A stretch of DNA of 64,000 nucleotides from Escherichia coli (lineage in GTDB: Bacteria > Pseudomonadota > Gammaproteobacteria > Enterobacterales > Enterobacteriaceae): NCBI RefSeq assembly GCF_013315695.1, contig NZ_CP054356.1. One strand, written 5' to 3'. The translations under genes were made by a program, and so were the position numbers. The notes beneath the pieces are model-generated. The model did not search any database. It was not told where the DNA came from and saw only the letters and a list, made by a program, of their open reading frames with translations. Shown here one piece after another: positions 8,810-27,460 of this stretch (positions within the stretch are counted from its first letter, which is position 1; the number at the start of each line of letters is the position of its first letter).

Positions 8810-8975
8810 CTCCTTATGGTGTTTTTTTTGGTGTTTGTTTGGGTGTGTTTTGGGTTTTAAGTGGGTTTATTTGTCAAGTTTACCCCATTTTAACTATCAA
8901 TCAATGATTATTTGTCTTGTTTTGGTGTTTTATTGGGTTTGGAGTGGGTTGTTTTTGGGTTTTGTTTGGCGGATA
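8810..8975. promoter_or_regulatory. parC: parC centromere/promoter region (iterated ~11-bp repeats)
   Basis: Directly upstream of parM: multiple direct repeats of GGGTGTGTTTT / GGGTTTTAAGT / GGTGTTTTATT type flanking an AT-rich core. Confidence 0.7.
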
Positions 8976-8980
8976 ACAAA

Positions 8981-9290
8981 AGATGTCGCCGGGCTCCTCT
9001 TTTTACTGCGCCGGCTGACGCGGCGCGGCAGGAACGCTGCCTGTGGTCAGTGTCCCGCGTCCGGCCGGGCACGGGACGGGCGCTTTTACCGCTCCCGGCT
9101 GGCGTCGGTGACAGTGTACGCCAGCCCGTCGCCCTTTTCTGATGAGCGCCCTTCAAGCCGCTTTCGCGGCATAGCCTTGCCGTCAAAAAGACGACGGCTG
9201 CGGTATTCCACGGTCGGCCTGACCCGTTACCGGGCGCGGTGAACAGCCCACAGGCAGCGGGGAACGGGCGCCACAGGGGCGCCCTCCCGA
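8981..9290 (+). repeat. Leading-region structured repeat, family A copy 1 (Frpo/ssi-like candidate ssDNA promoter)
   Basis: About 310 bp nearly identical to 10288-10598; GC-rich with nested inverted repeats; sits directly upstream of an operon start. Confidence 0.6.
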
Positions 9291-9312
9291 TGCTCCTGTG
9301 AGGATAATTCCC

Positions 9313-10239
9313 ATGCCAAACTGGTGCTCGAATCGTATGTATTTTTCTGGTGAACCGGCACAGATCGCTGAGATTAAACGACTGGCCAGCGGTGCAGTCA
9401 CACCGTTTTATCGCCGCGCCACAAATGAAGGTATTCAGCTGTTTCTGGCCGGAAGTGCCGGACTTCTGCAGACCACTGAAGATGTGCGGTTTGAACCATG
9501 CCCCGGACTGACGGCTGCCGGACGTGGTGTTTTATCGCCGGAGAATATCACGTTCACCCGCTGGCTGAAGCACCTGCAGGACGGTGTACTGCTGGATGAG
9601 CAAAACTGCCTGATGCTGCATGAACTCTGGCTGCAGAGCGGTACTGGACAGCGTCGCTGGGAAGGGTTACCGGATGATGTCAGGGAAACTATCACTGTGC
9701 ATTTCACCGCAAAAAGAGGTGACTGGTGTGACATCTGGGGTAACGAGGATGTATCGGTGTGGTGGAACCGTCTGTGTGACAACGTACTGCCGGAAAAAAC
9801 CATGCCGTTTGACCTGCTGACGGTTTTGCCGACCCGCCTGGATATTGAAGTGAATGGCTTTAACGGCGGTGTTCTGAACGGTGTTCCTTCTGCATATCAC
9901 TGGTATACAGAACGGTATGGCGTGAAGTGGCCTTGTGGGTATGACCTGAATATCAGCAGTCAGGGGGAAAACTTCATTCAGGTAGATTTCGACACGCCGT
10001 GGTGTCAGCCGGAAAGCGACGTTGTTGCAGAATTAAGCCGCCGTTTCGGCTGCACGCTGGAGCACTGGTACGCCGAACAGGGCTGCAATTTCTGTGGCTG
10101 GCAGTTGTATGAGCGCGGAGAGCTTGTTGATGTGCTGTGGGGGGAACTGGAATGGTCTTCCCCGACAGATGACGATGAGCTGCCGGAAGTCACCGGACCT
10201 GCGTGGATAGTCGACAATGTGGCGCATTATGGCGGATGA
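9313..10239 (+). CDS. Hypothetical Trp/Cys-rich leading-region protein (about 308 aa)
   Basis: ORF with SD AGGA upstream of ATG 9313 (track gives alternative GTG 9298); motifs PNWCSNRMYF, WCDIWGNEDVSVWWNRLCDN, GCNFCGWQL; no family recognised with confidence. Confidence 0.6.
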   Translation: MPNWCSNRMYFSGEPAQIAEIKRLASGAVTPFYRRATNEGIQLFLAGSAGLLQTTEDVRFEPCPGLTAAGRGVLSPENITFTRWLKHLQDGVLLDEQNCLMLHELWLQSGTGQRRWEGLPDDVRETITVHFTAKRGDWCDIWGNEDVSVWWNRLCDNVLPEKTMPFDLLTVLPTRLDIEVNGFNGGVLNGVPSAYHWYTERYGVKWPCGYDLNISSQGENFIQVDFDTPWCQPESDVVAELSRRFGCTLEHWYAEQGCNFCGWQLYERGELVDVLWGELEWSSPTDDDELPEVTGPAWIVDNVAHYGG

Positions 10240-10287
10240 AGTATGACGGAGACGGGCGGGCAACCGCCCGTTTCTTTTCCGGTAAAG

Positions 10288-10598
10288 GATGTCGCCGTGC
10301 TCCTCTTTTTACTGCGCCGGCTGACGCGGCGCGGCATAAACGCTGCCTGTGGTCAGTGTCCCGCGTCCGGTGGGCACGGGACGGGCGCTTTTACCGCTCC
10401 CGGCTGGCGTCGGTGACAGTGTACGCCAGCCTGTCGCCCTTTTCTGATGAACGCCCTTCAAGCCGCTTTCGCGGCATAGCCTTGCCGTCAGAAAGACGAC
10501 GGCTGCGGTATTCCACGGTCGGCCTGACCCGTTACCGGACGCGGTGAACAGCCCACAGGCAGCGGGGAACGGGCACCACAGGGGTGCCCTCCCGGTGC
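10288..10598 (+). repeat. Leading-region structured repeat, family A copy 2 (Frpo/ssi-like)
   Basis: Near-identical to 8981-9290; ends just before RBS of methyltransferase gene. Confidence 0.6.
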
Positions 10599-10622
10599 CC
10601 TCTGTAAGAGAAGGAGTTTTGT

Positions 10623-11306
10623 ATGTCCCGTTTTGTCCTCGGTAACTGCATCGATGTTATGGCCCGTATTCCTGATAACGCCATTGATTTCATACTGACT
10701 GACCCGCCGTACCTCGTCGGTTTCCGTGACCGTTCCGGGCGCACCATTGCCGGTGATGTTAATGATGACTGGCTGCAACCTGCCAGCAATGAGATGTACC
10801 GCGTACTCAAAAAAGACGCGCTGATGGTCAGCTTCTACGGCTGGAACCGTGTCGATCGCTTTATGGCCGCCTGGAAACGCGCCGGATTCAGCGTGGCAGG
10901 GCACCTCGTGTTCACCAAAAACTACACATCCAAATCTGCGTATGTCGCGTACCGTCACGAATGCGCTTACATCCTGGCAAAGGGCAGTCCGGCCCGGCCC
11001 CGTAACCCTCTGCCGGATGTGCTGGGCTGGAAATATTCAGGCAATCGTCATCACCCGACGGAAAAGCCCGTTACCAGCCTGCAACCACTGATTGAGAGCT
11101 TCACACATCCGAACGCGATTGTGCTGGACCCGTTTGCAGGCAGCGGCTCAACCTGCGTCGCTGCCCTCCAGTCCGGACGCCGGTATATCGGTATCGAGCT
11201 GCTTGAACAGTATCACCGTGCCGGACAGCAACGACTGGCCGCCGTGCAACGGGCCATGCAGCAGGGGGCCGCGAATGATAACTGGTTTGAACCGGAGGCT
11301 GCGTAA
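10623..11306 (+). CDS. Orphan DNA methyltransferase (N6-adenine/N4-cytosine type, beta-class)
   Basis: Motif IV TDPPY precedes motif I DPFAGSGST; 227 aa; typical leading-region orphan MTase. Confidence 0.85.
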   Translation: MSRFVLGNCIDVMARIPDNAIDFILTDPPYLVGFRDRSGRTIAGDVNDDWLQPASNEMYRVLKKDALMVSFYGWNRVDRFMAAWKRAGFSVAGHLVFTKNYTSKSAYVAYRHECAYILAKGSPARPRNPLPDVLGWKYSGNRHHPTEKPVTSLQPLIESFTHPNAIVLDPFAGSGSTCVAALQSGRRYIGIELLEQYHRAGQQRLAAVQRAMQQGAANDNWFEPEAA

Positions 11307-12791: not shown

Positions 12792-12847
12792 TGACGCTGG
12801 CGGGGAAAAATCTCCGCCTTTTCCAGTCGGTCCCCGGAAAGAGCAAA

Positions 12848-13200
12848 AGGATGTCGCCGCAGGCTCCTCTTTACCCGGCCATGTGGGGCATGGCCTTGTG
12901 GGTTTTCAGTTATGTGGCCTCAGCGTCGTGTGCGGGCTGTGCCGTGCCTCCATCGTAGCCGGGCTTCTGCGGGCGGGTTGCAAGGTAAGGTGAACCGCTG
13001 CGGTCACCCGGTCCCTCCTTCCCGTCTGCCGTGATTTTCCGGTCGTTCACCCGCTCAGATTTCGCGGTCTCACCCTTCAACTCCCGTCAGCCGTGCGCGT
13101 CAGGCTGCGGCTTCCCTTGCGCCCTTGCAACCCTGCAGGCCCGGCAAAGATGGAGGCACGGCACCGCCCGGTGTCGCGGAATATGTGAACAACGGAGGAA
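12848..13200 (+). repeat. Divergent family-A-related structured element upstream of klcA
   Basis: Begins with the same AAGGATGTCGCCG..GCTCCTCTTT motif as family A copies, then diverges; GC-rich with inverted repeats. Confidence 0.45.
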
Positions 13201-13206
13201 AACATC

Positions 13207-13632
13207 ATGCAATATGCGAAACCTGTCACTCTGAACGTTGAAGAGTGTGACCGTCTCTCCTTTCTGCCTTACCTGTTTGGCAACGATTTTCTGTATGCCG
13301 AGGCGTATGTGTACGCGCTGGCGCAAAAAATGATGCCGGAATATCAGGGAGGCTTCTGGCATTTCATCCGCCTGCCGGACGGTGGCGGTTACATGATGCC
13401 GGATGGCGACCGTTTTCATCTGGTCAACGGTGAAAACTGGTTTGACCGCACTGTGAGTGCTGATGCCGCAGGTATCATCCTGACTTCCCTTGTGATTAAC
13501 CGCCAGTTGTGGCTGTACCACGACAGCGGGGATGCGGGACTGACACACCTTTACCGGATGCGCGATGCGCAGTTGTGGAGCCACATCGAATTTCACCCCG
13601 AATGCAATGCGATTTACGCGGCACTTGACTGA
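13207..13632 (+). CDS. klcA: Antirestriction protein KlcA/ArdB family
   Basis: 141 aa; size, leading-region position and motifs ([21 protein letters not shown]) consistent with recalled KlcA/ArdB. Confidence 0.65.
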
Positions 13633-14289: not shown

Positions 14290-14490
14290 TACAGGGCAGG
14301 CGGTGGAGGCCGCCTGTCAGCCCGCGCGAAAACCCCTGGCAGGCTGGCGCCTGCCGGAAGGGAAGCGGGCCACGCTGGCGCGTCGCCCGTTACCCTTCCC
14401 GTTTGTGATGTGTCCGGAATGTTTTTTCCTGATGTTATGTTTCTGTGGTTACTGTTCTTCTTCTTCCTCTTCTTTCCGTTCCTCTCCTGT

Positions 14491-15025
14491 TTATGCCTTT
14501 TCCGGGCGTCCCCCTGGCGGGGCGGGCTGTCGTGAACGGAGCCAGCGGAGCTGTCTCCGCCCTGGCGGGCTTCCATCCCTGACGCAAAACCCCGGGTTTG
14601 CAGCGACCGGAACGGTCGCGCCACCCCTGTCGCGCCGTGGCCTGCGCTCCCGGCATCCCGGCAAAAAGACGCCGGGATGTAAGGAGCAACGCCGTTTCGC
14701 AAACCGCGCTTCACGTCGTTGCAGCGGGTCCCTGCTCATTGCCTGCCGGGTGCCACACACCCGTATGAGTCCCTGTCGCCGGGGGCATAGACAGCCACAA
14801 CCTGCCGCACTGACTGTCCAGGGTAAATGAACAGCCCACAAAATTTTTTACCTAAAACCCGGTAAAAAATTTTGCGTTCTGCCCAGGACAGGTGCGTCAG
14901 GCCGTGGCAGTGATGCCCCTTGCGGCGAAGGTTCTCAAACGGGTGAAGTTCATACCACAGGGAATACAGCAGCAGGTTCCCGCGAAACGTCAAAACCGCG
15001 GCTCCCGAAACTCAACGGGTGATGT
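14491..15025 (+). repeat. Leading-region structured repeat, family B copy 1 (Frpo/ssi-like candidate ssDNA promoter)
   Basis: About 530 bp repeated at 17774-18300 and 23191-23740; contains perfect 14-bp inverted repeat CAAAATTTTTTACC/GGTAAAAAATTTTG (about 14839-14874). Confidence 0.6.
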
Positions 15026-15256
15026 TCTTTAAAAATCAGGATTTATTTCAGGCTCCGGCAATACGCATTTATGTGTTCTGTCAGTCATCCGGCTGGCAGG
15101 TAATGAAAACGCAGGAACAGAAGGAGGAAAACACCGGAAAGCGTCAGATGCAGATATGAAAAAAAGCAGGTCAGGGACCTGCTTAATCCACGCCGTAAGA
15201 ATTGTGCGACCAATTTTGACGGCATTGTTAACCAATTTGTCATAAGGAATCCATTT

Positions 15257-15487
15257 ATGACTGTAAGCATTGTTTCACCTTCCGCAGCGGCTGTAAAGCC
15301 CCGCCGTCATCCCCGTTTCAGACGCGAAGACATCCCCGCGCCGGAACTTGACCCCGTGCTGAAAGCCTTCGGGCGACACATTGCCCGGAGTTTTCGCCGG
15401 GGGCGTGGTGTACACATCCCCGCCATGAAAAACACGGCCTTCGGGCAGGTGCTCCGCACACTCGAACTGAAACGCGCTTTTAACTGA
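15257..15487 (+). CDS. Hypothetical small basic protein (76 aa, Arg-rich)
   Basis: RBS AAGGAA; first gene after family B copy 1; RRHPRFRRED..RSFRRGRG. Confidence 0.5.
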   Translation: MTVSIVSPSAAAVKPRRHPRFRREDIPAPELDPVLKAFGRHIARSFRRGRGVHIPAMKNTAFGQVLRTLELKRAFN

Positions 15488-15538
15488 TGAGGTGAGCCGC
15501 CCCGCGAGGGGCGGCAACAGACGGAAGGAGAACATTTT

Positions 15539-16900
15539 ATGACATTAGCAGCAATCACCATGACCGCCCCGGAAGCCGCCAGCCCTGTGCAGATGTACCG
15601 CGCGACCTACTCACCGGATGACAACAAACTGCGCCTGTATGCCGTGTCACGTCTTGACCCGGAGACGTATAAAAAAGTGCATGATGCCGGTTTTCGCTGG
15701 GCACCAGAACAGGCGCTGTTTGTGGCTCCAGCCTGGACACCGGGCCGGGAAGACGTGCTCCTCTCACTTGCCGGAGAGATTGAGGATGAAGACAGCACGC
15801 TCGCTGAACGTCAGGAAGCACGGGCGGAGCGGTTTACCGGATACAGCGGAAAGCGGGCCAGTGAATCCGCACAGGCACTTGATGAAGTGGAAAGACTGGC
15901 CGCGATGATCCCGCCCGGTCAGCCCATTCTTGTGGGGCATCACAGCGAACGCCGCGCCCGTCGTGATGCGCAGCGTATTGAAAACGGCATGAAACGTGCC
16001 GTGATGCTCTTTGAACGTGCGGAATACTGGGAAGAACGTGCGCGGTCGGCACTGCTTCACGCGAAGTATAAAGAACGTCCGGACGTTCGCTGGCGTCGTA
16101 TCAAAAAAATCGAAGCTGATTTGCGCAAGGCTGAAAAGACCATCGCACAGTCGCAGAAATATCTGACGATGTGGCGGGCTGAATCGCTGGATCTGAATAT
16201 GGCAAAACTCATCAGCAGTCATGACCATATCAGCGCCTGTTTCCCGCTGGATACGTATCCGCGCCCGGCAGAAAAAAGCCAGTATGAAGGAAGTCGATCG
16301 TTATGGTCGGCCCTGGATGATGACATCATCACCACGGAGCAGGCCCGCGAAATTGCGATCCGCTGTCATGAACGGCAGATTCAGCATCAGCAACGCTGGG
16401 TTAACCACTATCAGAACCGCCTGATCTATGAGCGTGCCATGCTGGACGAAAGCGGCGGCGTGGTTACCCGGACACAGGATTTTGAGCCGGGCGGACAGGT
16501 TTTCAGCCGGGGCGAGTGGCTGACCATCATCCGCGTGAACAAAAGCAACGGGGCGGTGAGTTCAGTCACAACGCCGAATTACAGTTTTCTCGGGTACAGC
16601 GGCACGATGAAAGTGACGCCCGATCGCATCACGGACTACAAAGCACCATCGGCAGAAGAGGCTGCCGTCGCCAGCCAGGCCGCGAAGCGTCCGCCGGTAG
16701 TCAACTATCCGGGGGAAGGTTTCCGGGAAATGACAAAGGCGCAGTGGGCCGCCCTGCCCCGGGACTGTAAGGCCGTGCGCAGTGTGGCAGAGACAGAAGA
16801 CCACGGGGCATACCGCTACCGCCGCACAATGGACAATAATTTCCGCCTGGTGAATGTGTATATCACCGACATGAAAATCACGGAAATCCCGCAGAAATAA
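15539..16900 (+). CDS. Hypothetical leading-region protein (453 aa)
   Basis: Strong RBS GAAGGAGA; long ORF with Arg/Glu-rich helical central region; no family assigned with confidence. Confidence 0.65.
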   Translation: MTLAAITMTAPEAASPVQMYRATYSPDDNKLRLYAVSRLDPETYKKVHDAGFRWAPEQALFVAPAWTPGREDVLLSLAGEIEDEDSTLAERQEARAERFTGYSGKRASESAQALDEVERLAAMIPPGQPILVGHHSERRARRDAQRIENGMKRAVMLFERAEYWEERARSALLHAKYKERPDVRWRRIKKIEADLRKAEKTIAQSQKYLTMWRAESLDLNMAKLISSHDHISACFPLDTYPRPAEKSQYEGSRSLWSALDDDIITTEQAREIAIRCHERQIQHQQRWVNHYQNRLIYERAMLDESGGVVTRTQDFEPGGQVFSRGEWLTIIRVNKSNGAVSSVTTPNYSFLGYSGTMKVTPDRITDYKAPSAEEAAVASQAAKRPPVVNYPGEGFREMTKAQWAALPRDCKAVRSVAETEDHGAYRYRRTMDNNFRLVNVYITDMKITEIPQK

Positions 16901-16946
16901 GGTATATCCCCCCGGGAAATCCCCGGGGGATGACGGAGATAATGAT

Positions 16947-17510
16947 ATGCACAGTCAGTTAAAAGAACGTATCCGGCTGATGCGCGCAAGGCTGGATAAC
17001 GCCGCGCCGGTTGCTGAAATCCGGGCTGAATCTCAGCTTTTTGTGACTCCTGCCCCGGTCTGTGATCGCCTGGTGACGCTGGCGGAGATCAGCAACCGTG
17101 ATCACATTCTGGAACCCTCTGCCGGCACCGGGGCCATACTGCGGGCGATTCGTCATGTCGCGCCGGGGGCCATGTGTGATGCGGTGGAGATTAACAGCGG
17201 GCTGGTCCGGTATCTGCGGGATAATTTTAACGGTGTCAGGGTTCAGTGTGGCGACTTCATGGAATGGCAGCCGGTGCAGTATTACAGCCGGATTATCATG
17301 AATCCGCCGTTCAGTCACGGGCAGGATATCCGGCATATCCTGCGGGCTTTTTCCCTGTTGCGTCCGGGTGGTGTGCTGGTTGCCGTCTGTCTGAACGGGC
17401 CGCGCCAGCAGGAGAAGCTGTTACCGTTTTCTGATGTCCGCGAGGTGCTGCCGTGCGGCACATTTGCTTATACCCGTGTTCCGACGATGATTATTCGTCT
17501 GCGTGCCTGA
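16947..17510 (+). CDS. Small orphan SAM-dependent DNA methyltransferase (N6-adenine type)
   Basis: Motif I EPSAGTGA and motif IV NPPF; 187 aa; RBS GGAG. Confidence 0.7.
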   Translation: MHSQLKERIRLMRARLDNAAPVAEIRAESQLFVTPAPVCDRLVTLAEISNRDHILEPSAGTGAILRAIRHVAPGAMCDAVEINSGLVRYLRDNFNGVRVQCGDFMEWQPVQYYSRIIMNPPFSHGQDIRHILRAFSLLRPGGVLVAVCLNGPRQQEKLLPFSDVREVLPCGTFAYTRVPTMIIRLRA

Positions 17511-17687
17511 TGACTCCGGGCAGGCGGGAGGATAAATGCCCGTCTGCCCGCGCCGGGAAAAGACCGCGCGCCGGTGGCGCTGAAAGGGGCCGCGCTTACG
17601 CGCCGCCCCTTTCATTACGCGGACGTTCTGCTGTGGGCTTCTGTCTTTTCAGACCTGTCATTTGCCTGTTACTGATGATGTTGTTGT

Positions 17688-17722
17688 TCCTGCTACTGCT
17701 ACTGCTACTGCTACTGCTACTG
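17688..17722. repeat. Tandem hexanucleotide repeat (TGCTAC)n, about 5 units
   Basis: CTGCTACTGCTACTGCTACTGCTACTGCTACTG in pyrimidine-rich tract preceding family B copy 2. Confidence 0.8.
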
Positions 17723-17773
17723 TTCTTCTTTTTTCTGCTGCTCTGATTACTGTCTGTTTTGTTGTTCTCCTGC

Positions 17774-18300
17774 TTATGCCTTTTCCGGGCGTCCCCCTGG
17801 CGGGGCGGGCTGTCGTGAACGGAGCCAGCGGAGCTGTCTCCGCCCTGGCGGGCTTCCATCCCTGACGCAAAAACCCGGGTTTGCAGCGACCGGAACGGTC
17901 GCGCCACCCTTGTCGCGCCGTGGCCTGCGCTCCCGGCATCCCGGCAAAAGACGCCGGGATGTAAGGAGCAACGCTGTTTCGCAAACCGCGCTTCACGTCG
18001 TTGCGGCGGGTCCCTGCCCGTTGTTCTGTCCGGTGCCATTCACCTGTTTAAGCCCCTGTCGCCGGGGGCTGATACAGCCACAACCTGCCGCACTGACTGT
18101 CCAGGGTAAATGAACAGCCCACAAAATTTTTTACCCAAAACCCGGTAAAAAATTTTGCGTTCTGCCCAGGACAGGTGCGTCAGGCCGTGGCAGTGATGCC
18201 CCATGCGGCGAAGGTTCTCAAACAGGTGATGGTGAATACCGGAGGGAACAAAAGGCAGGTCCCCGCAAAACGTCAAAACCGCGGCTCCCGAAACTCAACA
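17774..18300 (+). repeat. Leading-region structured repeat, family B copy 2 (Frpo/ssi-like), upstream of ssb
   Basis: Near-identical to 14491-15025 and 23191-23740. Confidence 0.6.
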
Positions 18301-18340
18301 GATGATGGGGGCTGAAAACATCAACAGAAGGAGACACATC

Positions 18341-18868
18341 ATGGCAGTTCGTGGCATTAACAAGGTCATTCTTGTCGGTCGTCTGGGAAAAGATCCGGAA
18401 GTCCGTTACATCCCCAACGGGGGCGCAGTGGCAAACCTGCAGGTGGCCACGTCAGAAACCTGGCGCGACAAACAGACGGGGGAAATGAAGGAGCAGACGG
18501 AATGGCACCGCGTGGTGCTGTTCGGCAAGCTCGCGGAAGTGGCAGGTGAATATCTGCGTAAGGGGGCGCAGGTCTACATTGAAGGCCAGCTTCGCACCCG
18601 TAGCTGGGAAGATAACGGTATTACCCGTTACGTCACCGAAATCCTTGTTAAAACCACGGGCACCATGCAGATGCTGGGGAGTGCACCACAGCAGAACGCT
18701 CAGGTGCAACCGCAGCCTCAGCAGAATGGTCAGTCACAGAGTGCTGACGCGACGAAAAAAGGGAGCGCGAAAACGAAAGGCCGTGGACGTAAGGCTGCGC
18801 AGCCGGAGCCTCAGCCGCAACCACCGGAGGGGGAGGATTACGGGTTTTCAGACGATATCCCGTTCTGA
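18341..18868 (+). CDS. ssb: Plasmid single-stranded DNA-binding protein SSB
   Basis: [23 protein letters not shown].. OB-fold N-terminus and acidic C-terminal tail DDIPF; track ORF extended to upstream ATG 18302. Confidence 0.95.
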
Positions 18869-18886
18869 CTGGCCTGACTGTGATAA

Positions 18887-19159
<273 letters not shown>

Positions 19160-19219
19160 GAGAGGTGCCGGACGGGGATCACGTCCGGCAGACATTAACT
19201 ACACAATAAGGGGATAGTC

Positions 19220-21184
19220 ATGTCAGTAACAAAGTCTGAACCAAAATCTACCCGTAAAGCAAGCCGTAAACCTGCAAAAACGCAGGAAACTGTCCTGTCT
19301 GCCCTGCTGGCGCAGACGGAGGAAGTGAGCGTGCCGCTGGCCTCGCTGATTAAGTCACCACTGAATGTGCGCACGGTGCCGTATTCTGCGGAGTCCGTCA
19401 GCGAACTGGCTGATTCCATTAAGGGGGTCGGCCTGCTGCAGAATCTGGTTGTTCATGCCCTGCCAGGTGACCGCCACGGTGTCGCCGCAGGTGGTCGCCG
19501 ACTGGCAGCACTCAACATGCTGGCAGAGCGTGGCATCATTCCGGCTGACTGGCCTGTCCGCGTGAAAATTATTCCGCAGGAACTGGCGACGGCCGCATCG
19601 ATGACCGAGAACGGTCATCGTCGGGATATGCACCCAGCCGAACAGATTGCCGGATTCTGTGCAATGGCGCAGGAAGGCAAAACACCTGCACAAATCGGTG
19701 ATTTGCTGGGCTATTCACCCCGCCACGTTCAGCGAATGCTGAAACTGGCTGACCTTGCGCCTGTCATCCTCGATGCGCTGGCAGAAGACCTCATCACCAC
19801 CGAGCACTGTCAGGCGCTGGCGCTGGAGAACGACACCGCGCGTCAGGTGCAGGTGTTTGAAGCCGCCTGTCAGTCGGGATGGGGCGGTAAACCGGAAGTA
19901 CAGACCATTCGTCGTCTGGTGACCGAAAGTGAAGTGGCGGTGGCAGGGAACAGTAAATTCCGCTTCGTGGGGGCTGATGCCTTCTCGCCAGATGAACTGC
20001 GCACTGACCTGTTCAGCGACGACGAGGGTGGCTATGTGGACTGCGTGGCGCTCGATGCCGCCCTGCTGGAAAAACTCCAGGCTGTTGCTGAACACCTTCG
20101 GGAAGCCGAAGGCTGGGGATGGTGCGCCGGACGCATGGAGCCTGTCGGTGAGTGCCGTGAGGATGCCGGAACATACCGCTGTCTGCCGGAGCCGGAAGCG
20201 GTGCTGACGGAGGCGGAAGAAGAACGTCTGAACGAACTGATGACGCGTTACGACGCGCTGGAAAACCAGTGTGAGGAATCTGACCTGCTGGAAGCAGAAA
20301 TGAAGCTGATGCGCTGCATGGCGAAGGTCAGGGCGTGGACGCCGGAGATGCGTGCCGGAAGCGGTGTGGTGGTGTCCTGGCGTTATGGCAACGTGTGTGT
20401 CCAGCGTGGTGTGCAGTTGCGCAGCGAGGATGATGCGGCTGACGACGCTGACCGCACGGAACAGGTGCAGGAGAAAGCGCCCGTGGAGGAAATCAGTCTG
20501 CCACTGCTGACGAAAATGTCTTCCGAACGCACGCTGGCAGTCCAGGCAGCACTGATGCAGCAACCGGACAAATCCCTGGCACTGCTGGCATGGACGCTCT
20601 GCCTGAATGTGTTTGGCAGCGGAGCGTACAGTAAACCAGCACAAATCAGCCTGGAATGTAAACATTATTCGCTGACCAGCGATGCGCCATCGGGGAAGGA
20701 CGGTGCCGCATTCCTGGCGCTGATGGCAGAAAAAGCCCGTCTTGCAGCCCTGTTACCGGAGGGATGGTCACGGGATATGACGACGTTCCTGTCACTCAGC
20801 CAGGAGGTACTGTTATCCCTGCTCAGTTTCTGCACCGCGTGCAGCATCCACGGCGTTCAGACCCGCGAGCATGGTCACACGTCACGCAGTCCGCTGGACT
20901 CGCTGGAGAGCGCTATCGGATTCCACATGCGCGACTGGTGGCAGCCGACGAAAGCAAACTTCTTCGGACACCTGCAAAAGCCGCAGATTATCGATGCCCT
21001 GAATGATGCCGGACTGTCCGGTGCTGCGCGGGACGCGGAGAAAATGAAGAAAGGCGATGCCGCTGAACATGCAGAGTTCCACATGAAAGACAACCGCTGG
21101 GTGCCTGGCTGGATGTGTACACCACGTCCACAGGCAGAGACGGAAACCACGGAGTACCGTGACGACCAGGCAGAAGCCGCCTGA
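19220..21184 (+). CDS. ParB-like nuclease domain protein (leading-region ParB/Srx homolog)
   Basis: 654 aa; N-terminal ParB-type region (..GLLQNLVVH.. GGRRLAALN..); conserved position between ssb and psiB. Confidence 0.7.
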
Positions 21185-21252
21185 CCGCCAGTCATAAACC
21201 ATTTATCACGCCGCCCTGCCGGAGACGGGGCGGCAGCAAGGGAGATACCGTG

Positions 21253-21687
21253 ATGAAAACTGAACTGACCCTGAATGTATTACAGACCATGAGCGCACAG
21301 GAATATGAAGATATCCGGGCTGCCGGAAGTGATGAACGTCGTGAACTCACACATGCCGTGATGCGGGAGCTGGATGCGCCGGATAACTGGACGATGAACG
21401 GCGAGTATGGCAGCGAGTTCGGCGGCTTTTTCCCCGTCCAGGTCCGTTTCACGCCTGCCCACGAACGTTTTCACCTGGCGTTATGTTCACCGGGCGATGT
21501 CTCTCAGGTCTGGGTGCTGGTTCTGGTGAATGCCGGTGGTGAGCCGTTTGCGGTGGTTCAGGTACAGCGGCGGTTTGCACCGGAAGCCGTCAGCCATTCA
21601 CTGGCACTGGCGGCGTCACTGGACGCGCAGGGGTACAGCGTCAGTGACATCATCCATATCCTGATGGCGGAAGGAGGTCAGGCATGA
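21253..21687 (+). CDS. psiB: Plasmid SOS inhibition protein PsiB
   Basis: [40 protein letters not shown].. matches recalled PsiB; ATG at 21253 (track starts at GTG 21250). Confidence 0.95.
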
Positions 21688-22403
21688 GCGCACGTTCACA
21701 GGCACTGGTTCCCCTCAGCGCAGAGCAACAGGCCGCATGGCGGGCGGTGGCGGAGACAGAAAAACGCCGCCACCAGGGAAACACGCTGGCGGAATATCCG
21801 TATGCGGGGGCGTTTTTCCGCTGTCTGAACGGAAGCCGCAGGATATCGCTGTCTGACCTGCGATTTTTCATGCCGTCCCTGACCGCAGAAGAACTGCGCG
21901 GCAACCGTTCTCAGTGGCTGTATGCCGTCGATGTGCTGATTGAAACTCAGGGCGAGGTCTGCCTTCTTCCCCTTCCCGGCGATGCAGCAGAGCGGCTGTT
22001 CCCGTCGGTGCGGTTCCGTGTCAGGGAGCGCAGTCGCCACAAATCCGCACTGGTCATGCAAAAGTACAGCCGCCAGCAGGCGAGGGAGGCAGAGCAGAAA
22101 GCCCGTGCGTACCAGGCGCTGGTCGCTCAGGCTGAAATCGAACTGGCATTCCATTCGCCGGAAACAGTCGGAAGCTGGCATGCCCGCTGGAGTGACCGGG
22201 TGGCAGAGCATGACCTGGAAACCCTGTTCTGGCAGTGGGGTGAGCGTTTTCCGTCACTGGCCGGAATGGAACGCTGGCAGTGGCAGGATATGCCGTTCTG
22301 GCAGGTTATTGCGGAAGCCAGTCTTGCAGCAAGAGAGGCCGGTCACGCTGTCCGTGAGATGGAGCGGTGGATGGTGCCGAACAAACTCCGGGAGGCGGCG
22401 TGA
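21684..22403 (+). CDS. psiA: Plasmid SOS inhibition protein PsiA
   Basis: 239 aa immediately downstream of and overlapping psiB stop. Confidence 0.85.
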
Positions 22404-22559
22404 TGCGGCAACAATCGCACAGATTACCCGTAAACAGCCTGAATGAGCGGGTTATTTTCAGGAAAAGTGAGTGTGGTCAGCGTGCAGGTATATGGGCTAT
22501 GATGTGCCCGGCGCTTGAGGCTTTCTGCCTCATGACGTGAAGGTGGTTTGTTACCGTGT

Positions 22560-22640
22560 TGTGTGGCAGAAAGAAGATAGCCCCGTAGTAAGTTAATTTT
22601 CATTAACCACCACGAGGCATCCCTATGTCTAGTCCACATC
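22560..22640 (-). ncRNA. Putative sok/flmB-type antisense RNA (approximate)
   Basis: Inferred from hok/mok architecture: antisense to mok leader; boundaries not determined. Confidence 0.3.
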
Positions 22641-22837
22641 AGGATAGCCTCTTACCGCGCTTTGCGCAAGGAGAAGAAGGCCATGAAACTACCACGAAGT
22701 TCCCTTGTCTGGTGTGTGTTGATCGTGTGTCTCACACTGTTGATATTCACTTATCTGACACGAAAATCGCTGTGCGAGATTCGTTACAGAGACGGACACA
22801 GGGAGGTGGCGGCTTTCATGGCTTACGAATCCGGTAA
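22625..22837 (+). CDS. mok: mok-like modulator-of-killing reading frame overlapping hok
   Basis: 70-aa ORF overlapping the hok frame, as in hok/sok and flm loci. Confidence 0.6.
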
Positions 22838-22841
22838 GTAG
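22683..22841 (+). CDS. hok: Hok/Gef-family membrane toxin (FlmA/Hok-like), 52 aa; below ORF-track size cut-off
   Basis: Translation [52 protein letters not shown] matches recalled Hok; TAG stop at 22839-22841. Confidence 0.92.
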
Positions 22842-22850
22842 CAACCTGGA

Positions 22851-22872
22851 GGCGGGCGCAGGCCCGCCTTTT
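22851..22872 (+). terminator. Rho-independent terminator of hok mRNA
   Basis: GGCGGGCGCAGGCCCGCC hairpin followed by TTTT. Confidence 0.7.
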
Positions 22873-23190
22873 CAGGGCTGATGCTGGTCTGACTGCACTG
22901 AAGCGCCTTTATAAAGGGGCTGCTGGTTCGCCGGTGGCCCCTTTCTCCTTGCTGGCATTGTACGGGCATGAACAACCAGACTGCCAGGAAGGCCGTTTCC
23001 CTCCGGGAACGGGGATGAACGTGCGCCTGCGGCGCCCGTTCTTTTCCCCCGCCTTCTCTGTTTATGACTTACCAGAAATCACATCACCTTCCCTTTGATT
23101 ATTCTCTTTTTCCTCCTGCTCTGACTCTGATTACTGCTCTGACTCTGATTACTGCTGCCCTGATTATTGTCTGTTTTGTTGTTCTCCTGC

Positions 23191-23740
23191 TTATGCCTTT
23201 TCCGGGCGTCCCCCTGGCGGGGCGGGCTGTCGTGAACGGAGCCAGCGAAGCTGTCTCCGCCCTGGCGGGCTTCCATCCCTGACGCAAAACCCCCGGCTTG
23301 CAGCGACTGTTCCGGTCGCGCCGCCTCTGTCGCGCCGTGGCCTGCGCTCCTGGCATCCCGGCAAAAGGCCGCCGGGATGTAAGGCGCAACGCCGTTTCGC
23401 AAACCGCGCTTCACGTCGTTGCGGCGGGTCCCTGCCCGTTGTTGTGTCCGGTGCCATTCACCTGTTTAAGCCCTGTCGCCGGGGCTGATAGTTGATACAA
23501 CCTGCCGCACTGACTGTCCGGTAAAATGAACAGCCCACAAAATTTTTTACCCAAAACCCGGTAAAAATTTTGCGTTCTGCTCCAGACAGGTGCGTCAGGC
23601 CGTGGCAGGTGATGCCCCTGCGGCGAAGGTTCTCAAACAGGTGATGGTGAATACCGGAGGAACAAAAGGCAGGTCCCCGCAAAACGTCAAAACCGCGGCT
23701 CCCGAAACTCAACAGATGATGGGGGCTGAAAACATCAGAT
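23191..23740 (+). repeat. Leading-region structured repeat, family B copy 3 (Frpo/ssi-like)
   Basis: Near-identical to copies 1 and 2; 3' end shares the ssb leader sequence up to about 10 nt before the RBS. Confidence 0.6.
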
Positions 23741-23752
23741 ACAGGAGGAATT

Positions 23753-24049
23753 ATGAGCGCATTTTCTTTTAACACCACTTATCAGCCAACAGGCGATCAG
23801 CAGAAAGACGCAATCGCACAAATCGGGATCATGCAGAATCGTGCTGTTCAGGCAAATCTTGCATATCAGAGCTGCCGGGATTCTGGTGCACTCTTTAAGG
23901 TGCTCCACCAGGTCAATAATGAGCTGCATGACTTACTGGATAGCCTGGAGAATCATACTCCTCTTGTCAGAAAAAACGCTGATGAGTTGATCGCGCTGTT
24001 ACTGCTTTTCACTCGGCAGGTTGGTCAGTCCCGAACTGACCTGATTTGA
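23753..24049 (+). CDS. Hypothetical protein (98 aa)
   Basis: RBS AGGAGG; first gene after family B copy 3. Confidence 0.5.
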   Translation: MSAFSFNTTYQPTGDQQKDAIAQIGIMQNRAVQANLAYQSCRDSGALFKVLHQVNNELHDLLDSLENHTPLVRKNADELIALLLLFTRQVGQSRTDLI

Positions 24050-24159: not shown

Positions 24160-24981
24160 ATGCGATTAGCTTCCCGTTTTGGTCGATATAATTCTATTCG
24201 CCGTGAGCGCCCGTTAACGGATGACGAATTAATGCAGTTTGTTCCATCTGTCTTTTCTGGTGATAAACATGAATCCCGGAGTGAGCGTTATACATATATC
24301 CCAACCATCAATATCATCAATAAGTTACGTGATGAAGGTTTCCAGCCATTCTTTGCCTGTCAGAGTCGGGTTCGTGATTTGGGACGCCGCGAATACAGTA
24401 AACATATGTTACGTCTTCGCAGGGAAGGGCATATTAACGGGAAAGAAGTTCCTGAAATTATCCTGCTTAATTCACATGATGGTTCATCCAGTTATCAGAT
24501 GATCCCAGGAATTTTTCGTTTTGTCTGCACAAATGGCCTGGTGTGTGGGAATAATTTTGGCGAAATCCGCGTTCCACATAAAGGTGATATTGTCGGGCAG
24601 GTTATTGAGGGAGCGTATGAAGTGCTCGGTGTCTTTGATAAAGTCACTGAAAATATGGAGACAATGAAAGAGATACATCTTAACAGTGACGAACAACATT
24701 TATTTGGCAGAGCTGCATTGATGGCCAGGTACGAAGATGAAAATAAAACGCCAGTGACGCCAGAACAAATAATTACTCCCCGCCGTTGGGAGGATAAACA
24801 GAACGATCTCTGGACAACCTGGCAGCGGGTTCAGGAGAATATGATAAAAGGTGGATTATCGGGGCGAAGTGCCTCCGGTAAAAATACCAGAACAAGAGCC
24901 ATTACAGGCATTGACGGTGATATCCGAATCAACAAAGCATTATGGATGATTGCCGAACAGTTCAGGGAGTGGAAGTCATGA
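24160..24981 (+). CDS. Conserved leading-region protein (DUF932-like)
   Basis: 273 aa; conserved position next to orf169/oriT in F-like plasmids; family name from memory only. Confidence 0.5.
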   Translation: MRLASRFGRYNSIRRERPLTDDELMQFVPSVFSGDKHESRSERYTYIPTINIINKLRDEGFQPFFACQSRVRDLGRREYSKHMLRLRREGHINGKEVPEIILLNSHDGSSSYQMIPGIFRFVCTNGLVCGNNFGEIRVPHKGDIVGQVIEGAYEVLGVFDKVTENMETMKEIHLNSDEQHLFGRAALMARYEDENKTPVTPEQIITPRRWEDKQNDLWTTWQRVQENMIKGGLSGRSASGKNTRTRAITGIDGDIRINKALWMIAEQFREWKS

Positions 24982-25789: not shown

Positions 25790-26195
25790 TTCCACCTCTG
25801 GTGACTTTATCCGTAAATAATTTAACCTACTCCACAAAAAGGCTCAACAGGTTGGTGGTTCTCACCACCAAAAGCACCACACCCCACGCAAAAACAATTT
25901 TTTGCTGATTTTTCTTTATAAATAGAGTGTTATGAAAAATTAGTTTCTCTTACTCTCTTTATGATATTTAAAAAAGCGGTGTCGGCGCGGCTACAACAAC
26001 GCGCCGACACCGCTTTGTAGGGGTGGTACTGACTATTTTTATAAAAAACATCATTTTATATTAGGGGCGCTGCTAGCGGCGCGGTGTGTTTTTTTATAGG
26101 ATACCGCTAGGGGCGCTGCTAGCGGTGCGTCCCTGTTTGTATTATGAATTTTAGTGTTCCGAAATTAACTTTATTTTATGTTCAAAAAAGGTAAT
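25790..26195 (-). other. oriT: Origin of transfer oriT (F/R100-type); nic predicted on minus strand near 25878/25879
   Basis: Plus strand carries reverse complement of the F nic region (..CCAAAAGCACC|ACACCCCACGC..), adjacent inverted repeat GGTGGTTCTCACCACC, A/T-rich tracts, hairpin GCGGTGTCGGCGCG..CGCGCCGACACCGC, repeated AGGGGCGCTGCTAGCGG motifs (TraM-site candidates). Confidence 0.8.
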
Positions 26196-26584: not shown

Positions 26585-26692
26585 AAGAAATTTGACTTCG
26601 TTCAAATATCAGAGTTTTTATGATTTAAAAAGGTGACAGTACGAAAGATAATTAGTATATTAATTACGTGGTTAATGCCACGTTAAAATTTG

Positions 26693-26775
26693 AATTTGAA
26701 AATCGCCGATGCAGGGAGTTCTCTCCTCCCCGCATCGACTGTCCATAGAATCCTTTGTGAGGAGGTTCCTATGTA
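26693..26775 (-). ncRNA. finP: FinP antisense RNA (approximate)
   Basis: Antisense to traJ leader/RBS; two stem-loops (e.g. CGATGCAGGGAG..CTCCCCGCATCG) and minus-strand U-tail (plus GAATTTGAAAATC). Confidence 0.6.
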
Positions 26776-27460
26776 TCCGATGGATCGTATTCAACAAAAA
26801 CATGCTCGTCAAATAGATCTGCTGGAAAATCTGACGGCAGTTATTCAGGATTATCCAAATCCAGCCTGTATCAGGGACGAAACTGGAAAATTTATTTTTT
26901 GCAATACGCTGTTTCATGAGTCATTTCTTACACAAGATCAAAGTGCTGAAAAATGGCTTCTGTCGCAGAGAGATTTTTATGAATTGATCTCTGTCACAGA
27001 GATGGAAGCATACAGGAATGAGCATACGCATCTTAATCTTGTAGAGGATGTTTTTATTCAGAACAGATTCTGGACAATATCTGTCCAGTCATTTCTTAAT
27101 GGACACAGAAATATTATTCTGTGGCAATTTTATGATGCTGCTCATGTTCGTCATAAAGACAGTTATAATCAAAAAACGATTGTCAGTGATGATATCAGAA
27201 ATATAATCAGAAGAATGAGTGATGATTCTTCTGTATCATCATATGTAAATGATGTATTTTACTTATATAGCACCGGAATCAGTCATAATGCTATAGCAAG
27301 AATATTAAACATATCCATCTCCACATCAAAGAAACACGCATCTCTGATATGCGACTACTTCTCTGTTTCTAATAAAGATGAGTTAATCATCTTACTCTAC
27401 AATAAAAAGTTTATTCATTATTTATACGAGAAGGCTATGTGTATCATAAATATGCGTTAA
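26771..27460 (+). CDS. traJ: Transfer operon activator TraJ
   Basis: ATG with RBS GAGGAGG; MYPMDRIQQKHARQIDLLENL..; track ORF extends upstream to 26690. Confidence 0.85.
   Translation: MYPMDRIQQKHARQIDLLENLTAVIQDYPNPACIRDETGKFIFCNTLFHESFLTQDQSAEKWLLSQRDFYELISVTEMEAYRNEHTHLNLVEDVFIQNRFWTISVQSFLNGHRNIILWQFYDAAHVRHKDSYNQKTIVSDDIRNIIRRMSDDSSVSSYVNDVFYLYSTGISHNAIARILNISISTSKKHASLICDYFSVSNKDELIILLYNKKFIHYLYEKAMCIINMR

Follow-up and report, generated by a model that had tools for sequence, protein, structure and literature searches.

The Frpo/ssi elements of conjugative plasmids, promoters that work in single-stranded DNA (ssDNA), have been known as a class since 1997 and have been studied intensively since 2023. 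According to PMC7690428 and Couturier et al., single-stranded Frpo forms in vitro a stem-loop with -35 and -10 boxes, which recruits RNA polymerase, and the RNA produced also primes DNA synthesis. In vivo, deletion of Frpo1 or Frpo2 abolishes early expression of downstream fusions (Couturier et al.), and an anti-CRISPR under Frpo control is protective to the plasmid only from a position within the transferred strand's leading region (PMC11541004). The Frpos and ssi1-3 make up class 1, which shows the highest transcription rates of the classes (Wen et al., PMC12672017), and transcription start sites were mapped by 5' rapid amplification of cDNA ends for all six ssDNA promoters of pESBL, those of class 1 (ssi-type) included (PMC12672017). 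For F and ColIb/pESBL, the literature describes transcription by sigma-70 RNA polymerase from the single-stranded but not from the duplex form, and expression that is early and transient in transconjugants. A 2026 preprint (bioRxiv 10.64898/2026.01.09.698686) adds in vivo evidence for ssp1/Frpo transcripts as primers of the conversion to double-stranded DNA. In this study, we analysed a stretch of 64,000 nucleotides from Escherichia coli (RefSeq assembly GCF_013315695.1, contig NZ_CP054356.1), referred to below as the window, in which three direct repeats, copies 1 to 3, very probably represent class-1 ssDNA promoters of the Frpo/ssi family (ssp1) that drive expression of the leading genes at an early stage. 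In our assessment, what is established here is homology to the published elements, position, strand, fold and covariation; promoter activity is taken from the literature. The units, about 545-598 bp long and delimited by repeat search, alignment and blastn, are the following.

14443-15040, minus strand: copy 1, whole unit, Frpo-type element
17726-18323, minus strand: copy 2, whole unit, counterpart of F Frpo2
23143-23737, minus strand: copy 3, whole unit, matching F Frpo1/ssiD in position

The three repeats are a real, non-chance feature of this DNA. A repeat search of the window returned two families of direct repeats (14443-14741/17726-18024/23143-23441 and 14841-14969/18124-18252/23539-23667), and blastn gave 92.8% identity between copies 1 and 2 (544 nt aligned), 93.8% between copies 2 and 3 (595 nt) and 88.5% between copies 1 and 3 (546 nt), with no fourth copy found in the window. 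A first-pass annotation, made from the letters alone, had reported three near-identical repeats at about these coordinates. Both searches bear out their presence, and the proposed extents were about right, although the units begin some 40-50 bp further left, the starts given there coinciding with ends of open reading frames (ORFs); the copies are highly similar, but with 88-94% identity they are not near-identical. The pairwise alignment which that annotation proposed shows similarity continuous along the whole unit, beyond low-complexity stretches and not confined to them, while its remark that identity lies far above that of the flanking genes proved to be an empty comparison, as those genes are mutually unrelated. 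The perfect 14-bp inverted repeat that it described, CAAAATTTTTTACC-N8-GGTAAAAAATTTTG, is present at 14839-14874 (copy 1) and 18122-18157 (copy 2), but in copy 3 (23538-23573) one arm has a 1-nt deletion; 0.00 matches to this pattern are expected by chance, as judged from shuffles of the window. The overall interpretation offered there is supported, except that it left unnamed an element which corresponds to the published Frpo/ssi promoters.

This correspondence begins with sequence homology. In an alignment with plasmid F, mean column identity to its two Frpo regions is 92%; around the palindrome, the sequence is the same as that of the Frpo2 fragment employed in experiments (PMC11541004, supplement 11), and both F ssiD (D90178) and ssi1-3 of ColIb-P9 align with the copies along the hairpin. 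The surroundings agree with this assignment, and with the suggestion of the first-pass annotation that IncF leading regions should be considered, as the window contains the leading region of an IncF plasmid: a 14-kb region is 99.8% identical to conjugative IncF plasmids of about 72 kb, and it matches at least 5000 plasmid records. According to the annotation of a 99.8%-identical plasmid, the gene order runs from an ardA-like antirestriction gene (13207-13632), a DUF1380 gene and a hypothetical ORF to copy 1, which precedes an operon (15026-17510) of two small ORFs, a DUF3560 gene (15539-16900) and an S-adenosylmethionine (SAM) methyltransferase gene (16947-17510). Copy 2 follows and precedes ssb (ATG at 18341), a DUF905 gene, a parB-like gene, psiB and psiA; after hok/sok comes copy 3, in front of a hypothetical ORF (23753-24049) and a DUF932 gene (24160-24981), the homologues of ygeA/ygeB. 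Beyond these lie an SLT gene on the minus strand, the origin of transfer (oriT), traM, traJ and traY. All three copies are thus placed near oriT and directly upstream of leading genes, and the positions of copies 2 and 3 are those of the two elements in F.

The strand is shown by the nick site, a sequence match located between the SLT gene and traM.

25877-25887, minus strand: F-type oriT nick-site sequence GTGGGGTGTGG

During transfer of F, the nicked strand enters the recipient with its 5' end first and the leading region ahead. Because the nick sequence lies on the minus strand, this strand is the transferred one and also the template of the plus-strand leading genes. The operons downstream of all three copies are on the plus strand, and the hairpins described below are formed by their template, that is, by the transferred strand.

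When the minus strand is folded as ssDNA, as the first-pass annotation had proposed to do, each copy yields a single hairpin, long (about 330 nt) and imperfect, whose tip is the A/T palindrome. The z-scores below were derived from shuffles, whose mean free energy (dG) was near -110 kcal/mol.

14681-15015, minus strand: copy 1 hairpin; unit dG -160.4 kcal/mol, z -9.3; hairpin alone -101.5 kcal/mol
17964-18298, minus strand: copy 2 hairpin; unit dG -169.2 kcal/mol, z -10.4; hairpin alone -106.0 kcal/mol
23381-23712, minus strand: copy 3 hairpin; unit dG -146.3 kcal/mol, z -6.9

In a scan of minus-strand folding in 300-nt segments from 6 to 27 kb, the three copies ranked within the top six hairpins of the leading region by strength. 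Conservation of the fold was assessed in an alignment of 11 homologues (the three copies, both F copies, ssi1-3 of ColIb-P9, and Serratia and insect-metagenome sequences from supplement 4 of PMC11541004). Across it, 91.8% of cells in the main hairpin are paired, against 38-48% when the partners are slid; both sides have changed in 17 pairs, and the observed covariation score was reached by none of 500 shuffles. The lower stem, specific to IncF, covaries too, as seen in nine IncF-like sequences that include those of Citrobacter and Enterobacter plasmids. Fold z-scores and covariation together give the long imperfect stem-loop that characterizes class 1 of the Frpo/ssi elements, and the covarying pairs agree with the earlier proposal that selection acts on sequence or structure.

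It might be argued that the conserved structure acts in RNA, as a structured 5' leader or a small RNA of plus-strand transcripts. The plus strand of copy 1 does fold well (-144.8 kcal/mol, z -7.1), if more weakly than the minus strand, and the right arm would lie partly in the 5' leader. However, on the transferred strand there are 56 G·T pairs and 9 A·C pairs. Such a bias implies that selection acts on the minus strand, since the complementary strand, or a plus-sense RNA, would have C·A mismatches at these places. Moreover, Rfam searched with permissive thresholds gave nothing inside the three elements at E<=1, the hits in the region (sok, AS-pc01, FinP and the traJ 5' untranslated region) lying elsewhere, and the fragment used in functional work is a truncated hairpin comprising only the upper ~75 bp (PMC11541004). 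We therefore regard an action in RNA as very improbable.

Even less probable, in our view, is that the repeats are selfish or neutral DNA, resembling miniature inverted-repeat transposable elements or recombination scars, and are alike only through gene conversion. The copies are mosaic and clearly recombine, as the first-pass annotation suspected when it named gene conversion, and their abundance, in at least 5000 plasmid records, would also suit such a view. It does not account for the pairing preserved by double changes across IncF, IncI, Serratia and metagenome copies, for the constancy with which the copies are placed and oriented with respect to oriT and the operons downstream, for the strand asymmetry of the wobble pairs, or for the published deletion phenotypes.

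A coding function was considered as well, since an open frame of about 60 codons on the minus strand is common to the three copies, and PGAP annotates such ORFs in F and other plasmids, in some records as a 'hypothetical protein'. Nevertheless, the starts and ends of these ORFs vary by copy and 1-nt indels break the frames; five internal ORFs that were searched have no NCBIfam match, and the ORFs agree with one another only where the DNA is conserved, the N-terminus in copy 2 being frameshifted and the low-complexity tails unrelated. In more distant copies this stretch is interrupted by 1-nt and 6-nt indels, and no coding sequence is called there; GC-rich DNA also yields long ORFs by chance. 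That the repeats encode a small conserved protein can hardly be believed, and the warning of the first-pass annotation against reading these ORFs as coding evidence was sound.

If the repeats are class-1 ssDNA promoters, promoter features should be sought within the hairpin, and we propose the following assignment.

14837-14852 and 14861-14876, minus strand: copy 1, tip of the hairpin, a 16-bp A/T-rich stem with an 8-nt loop (14853-14860), holding the 14-bp inverted repeat
14824-14831, minus strand: copy 1, bulge TTCATTTA, 8 nt and conserved, which separates the tip stem from the -35-like hexamer on the 3' arm
14815-14820, minus strand: copy 1, -35-like TGGACA on the 3' arm, the putative non-template strand in the hairpin
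14786-14797, minus strand: copy 1, small internal loops, candidate -10 zone, without a secure hexamer
18120-18159, minus strand: copy 2, tip
18098-18103, minus strand: copy 2, TGGACA
18069-18080, minus strand: copy 2, candidate -10 zone
23536-23574, minus strand: copy 3, tip
23515-23520, minus strand: copy 3, CGGACA
23486-23497, minus strand: copy 3, candidate -10 zone, with TATCAA at 23492-23497

Within the family, CTGTCC(G/T)GGG and its partner CCCTGGACAG (helix 8) form the duplex that varies least. Read from tip to base, its 3' arm gives TGGACA, a 5/6 match to the -35 consensus, and we infer that this hexamer is the -35 element. In 10 of the 11 sequences the first T of the hexamer is either mismatched or in a wobble pair (for F Frpo1 this was judged by eye, as the position is shifted in the alignment), and consequently in duplex DNA the hexamer degrades to AGGACA or CGGACA. 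A -35-like hexamer that is better in the hairpin than in the duplex fits a promoter restricted to the single-stranded state. Some 11 bp further upstream, on the template arm, is the A/T palindrome, probably an UP element, a label we take from Samuel et al. (PMC11541004). Its core is invariantly A/T, and pair 163/194 switches between A-T and G-C. The palindrome is wholly absent from the insect-metagenome copies and is thus not essential to the family. The -10 element would be located in the mismatched zone about 17 effective nt beyond TGGACA. A probable ssDNA promoter of another kind bears on this point: in the class-2-like hairpin at 12841-13220 and in Frpo' 4 of Samuel et al., GTTCAC.TTACC is followed by TTGCAA/TTGCAT and then by TACGAT/TAAGAT, and this order of motifs, the same as in the copies, supports the -35 assignment and places the -10 element in the downstream mismatched zone. 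With the 5' arm as the presumed template, RNA 5' ends are expected near 14918, 18201 and 23616 (each +/-10), the transcripts running into the downstream operons.

Other arrangements were rejected by inspection. The bulge TTCATTTA was discarded as a -10 element, its position 2 being variable and no -35 element lying 17 nt upstream. A combination of TTGTGG or TTGCGG as -35 with TGGACA as -10 was also dismissed, both because TGGACA has neither A-11 nor T-7 and because it sits in the most stable, invariant duplex. A promoter reading from base to tip along the 5' arm, with either TTGAGA-17-CATCAC or a basal TTGACG, was discarded too, since it would rely on hexamers that are unpaired in the working truncated Frpo2 fragment. 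A strict consensus scan found no canonical sigma-70 promoter in duplex DNA on either strand within the three elements, the sole site it reported being at 15297-15269, downstream of copy 1.

Several observations weigh against the identification as promoters. The same strict scan finds no promoter on the hairpin arms either, and there is no convincing -10 element: an effective spacing of 17 nt gives CTGTCT or CTGTAT, and TATCAA occurs in copy 3 only. Copy 3 itself has CGGACA, the 1-nt deletion at the tip and the weakest fold, and may be a weaker promoter. Copy 1 has no tested counterpart in F, and an extension of about 200 nt in every unit is left unexplained by a promoter model.

If the assignment as class-1 promoters is correct, the following course of events can be envisaged. 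The minus strand would enter the recipient from the oriT nick at ~25880, 5' end first, and in each arriving element about 330 nt would snap back into a long imperfect hairpin that mimics duplex promoter DNA. Host sigma-70 RNA polymerase would bind the hairpin and transcribe the transferred strand towards oriT, so that the plus-strand operon downstream would yield mRNA while its complementary strand is still missing. Copy 1 would serve the two small ORFs, the DUF3560 protein and the methyltransferase, copy 2 ssb, the parB-like gene, psiB and psiA, and copy 3 the ygeA/ygeB homologues. The transcripts could, according to published work, also prime synthesis of the complementary strand. Conversion to double-stranded DNA would then remove the hairpin and turn the promoter off, making expression both early and transient. 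The copies serve, in addition, as substrates of homologous recombination, by which whole operons are added or removed.

The priming step raises the question whether the elements are mainly signals for synthesis of the complementary DNA strand, mRNA production being secondary. ssiD was first isolated as a priming signal, its RNA persists in vitro as an RNA-DNA hybrid that is used by DNA polymerase III (PMC7690428), and early conversion downstream of ssp1a/ssp1b is rifampicin-sensitive in vivo (bioRxiv 10.64898/2026.01.09.698686). Yet each copy stands directly upstream of an operon in the correct orientation, and the deletions of Frpo1 and Frpo2 mentioned above abolish early reporter expression, while deletion of Frpo2 brings no drop in transfer frequency (Couturier et al.). 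Priming and mRNA synthesis are not mutually exclusive, and a mainly priming role seems unlikely to us.

The part of the unit that lies outside the hairpin deserves separate consideration. The published 328-nt ssiD (D90178) stops just past the hairpin, but in the window the repeated sequence extends some 200 nt beyond it, towards the 3' end of the transferred strand.

14483-14680, minus strand: copy 1, conserved extension that follows the hairpin on its 3' side (transferred strand) and contains small GC-rich hairpins
17766-17963, minus strand: copy 2, conserved extension
23183-23380, minus strand: copy 3, conserved extension

Identity in the extension is 93-97% among the window copies, reaching 97% between copies 1 and 2, against 76-86% in the lower stem. 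Elements from Citrobacter, Enterobacter, Salmonella and metagenomes have the extension as well, next to hairpins that are divergent. It folds into small hairpins rich in GC, in which five pairs covary and G·T wobbles of the transferred strand are invariant; its thermodynamic excess is weak (z -2.2 for the minus strand, -1.3 for the plus strand). It is conceivable, though on balance doubtful, that the extension is a separate functional ssDNA module. If so, it could be a priming site, or it could act like ssp2 and protect the promoter hairpin against read-through or synthesis of the complementary strand coming from the 3' side. The extension is the only aspect of these elements with some potential to be new. 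One of its hairpins, GCGACCG-NNN-CGGTCGC (14606-14622 and equivalents; alignment columns 424-440), shows an inversion of its loop on an unchanged stem: copies 1 and 2 read TTC there, whereas copy 3, like both F copies, reads GAA. The left side of every copy is bordered by a pyrimidine-rich tandem repeat, different each time, which is purine-rich on the transferred strand.

14455-14474: left-border tandem repeat of copy 1, (TTC)x6.7
17690-17722: left-border tandem repeat of copy 2, (CTGCTA)x5.5
23116-23166: left-border tandem repeat of copy 3, 18-mer x2.3-3

Some other features of the region were noted in passing. Rfam places the sok antitoxin RNA (22509-22685) between copies 2 and 3, and hok/sok has been suggested to counter-select Frpo x Frpo deletions (Couturier et al.). 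FinP and the traJ 5' untranslated region (26666-26777) adjoin oriT. Just downstream of copy 1, the minus strand carries the antisense RNA AS-pc01 (15161-15262; 79.4 bits, gathering score 79), and on the same strand there are a promoter-like TTTACA-17-AACAAT (15297-15269) and a terminator-like hairpin (15184-15164).

Elements of this kind let a conjugative plasmid express genes for SOS inhibition, ssDNA binding, antirestriction and DNA methylation within minutes, of entry, before it is double-stranded, and such early expression is central to the establishment of resistance plasmids in new hosts. The assignment leaves the current understanding of this process unchanged. As regards annotation, the ORFs inside the repeats are best taken as spurious, and the repeats themselves as regulatory elements which define three early operons.

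Comparison with plasmid F (NC_002483) indicates how these operons might be gained and lost. F has two copies, Frpo2 in front of ssb and Frpo1/ssiD in front of the ygeA/ygeB homologues. F Frpo2 (ssp1b) has the same position as copy 2 and matches it at 97-100% identity in the upper stem, the palindrome, the loop and the gene-proximal arm. Its lower 5' arm is 99% identical to copy 2 and 75% to copy 1, its lower 3' arm 98% identical to copy 1 and 86% to copy 2, and its tail is nearest to copy 1 (78%, the other copies reaching 55-59%). Both lower arms distinguish copy 1 from copy 2, but each copy pairs with itself. The hairpin energies are -101.5 kcal/mol for copy 1, -106.0 for copy 2, -93.6 and -98.3 for arm-swapped chimeras and -85.7 for F Frpo2. 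To judge from these sequence affinities, F Frpo2 looks like a recombinant hybrid of copies 2 and 1 with a weaker hairpin. F also lacks the 3283-bp module found between copies 1 and 2, and with it the extra operon of copy 1. The simplest reading would be that the layout of F arose from a three-copy layout by recombination between copies 1 and 2, an event that would have removed the module, that is, the right part of copy 1, four genes and the left part of copy 2. Events of the same kind are documented in IncI plasmids (PMC3817090), and recombination between Frpos was anticipated for F (Couturier et al.). The comparison shows the repeats as recombination joints at which whole cassettes of early genes are gained or lost, as already seen in IncI plasmids.

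F Frpo1/ssiD (D90178; Masai & Arai 1997) shares with copy 3 its position and hairpin architecture. Identity between them is 92-98% over the lower stem, extension and tail (92-96% over the 3' arm of the lower stem, extension and tail), but it falls to 57-66% in the upper stem and tip, the tip of F Frpo1 being CAAAATCTTTGCC...GGCAAAAAGTTTTG; the upper stem of copy 3 is 80-84% identical to those of copies 1 and 2. These mixed affinities of copy 3 indicate gene conversion. The ssiD record D90178 differs from NC_002483 (15419-16016) in several bases of the tip and in having GGGGCATACTGCC versus GGGGCATCACTGCC. Such differences are due either to strain variation or to old sequencing errors, and they affect -10 assignments made from D90178. 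The F element ssiE was not found in the window.

Among other plasmids, ColIb-P9 (IncI1) provides a close parallel. Its ssi1-ssi3 are likewise three dispersed copies in the leading region, with an A/T palindromic tip, a bulge and a covarying stem, and they have in common with our copies the core duplex CCCTGGAC / GTCCGGGG. They are unlike them in having a shorter main hairpin (about 240 nt) without the IncF lower stem, and they share the extension in part. Promoters of classes 2 and 3 (ssp2/Frpo3 and ssp3; Wen et al. 2025, Fraikin et al. 2026) resemble the copies as long leading-region hairpins of the transferred strand that precede plus-strand genes, but ssp2 also stops synthesis of the complementary strand, and no such role has been reported for class 1. 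In the window, a minus-strand hairpin at 12841-13220 (-78.2 kcal/mol), upstream of the antirestriction gene at 13207-13632 and with TTGCAA...TACGAT on its 3' arm, is probably of the class 2/ssp2/Frpo3 type and resembles by eye Frpo' 4 of Samuel et al. Two further minus-strand hairpins, at 8921-9460 and 10161-10660 (-94.9 and -85.7 kcal/mol per 300 nt), are 95% identical over 326 nt; each overlaps a 'hypothetical protein' ORF and precedes a plus-strand gene (DUF1281 and a DNA methylase gene, 10623-11306, respectively), and they probably represent another class of ssDNA promoter. A blastn comparison of copy 1 with these hairpins (8900-9480, 10150-10680 and 12800-13230) gave no match at E<0.01, and sequence similarity of the copies to classes 2/3, whose hairpins precede ardB/klcA or the M.EcoGIX-type methylase gene, was thus not seen. 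Finally, the single-strand origin (sso) of rolling-circle plasmids resembles Frpo in being folded ssDNA on which host RNA polymerase makes a primer RNA (a comparison drawn in PMC7690428), but it serves vegetative rolling-circle replication, is not an mRNA promoter and has no sequence relationship to Frpo.

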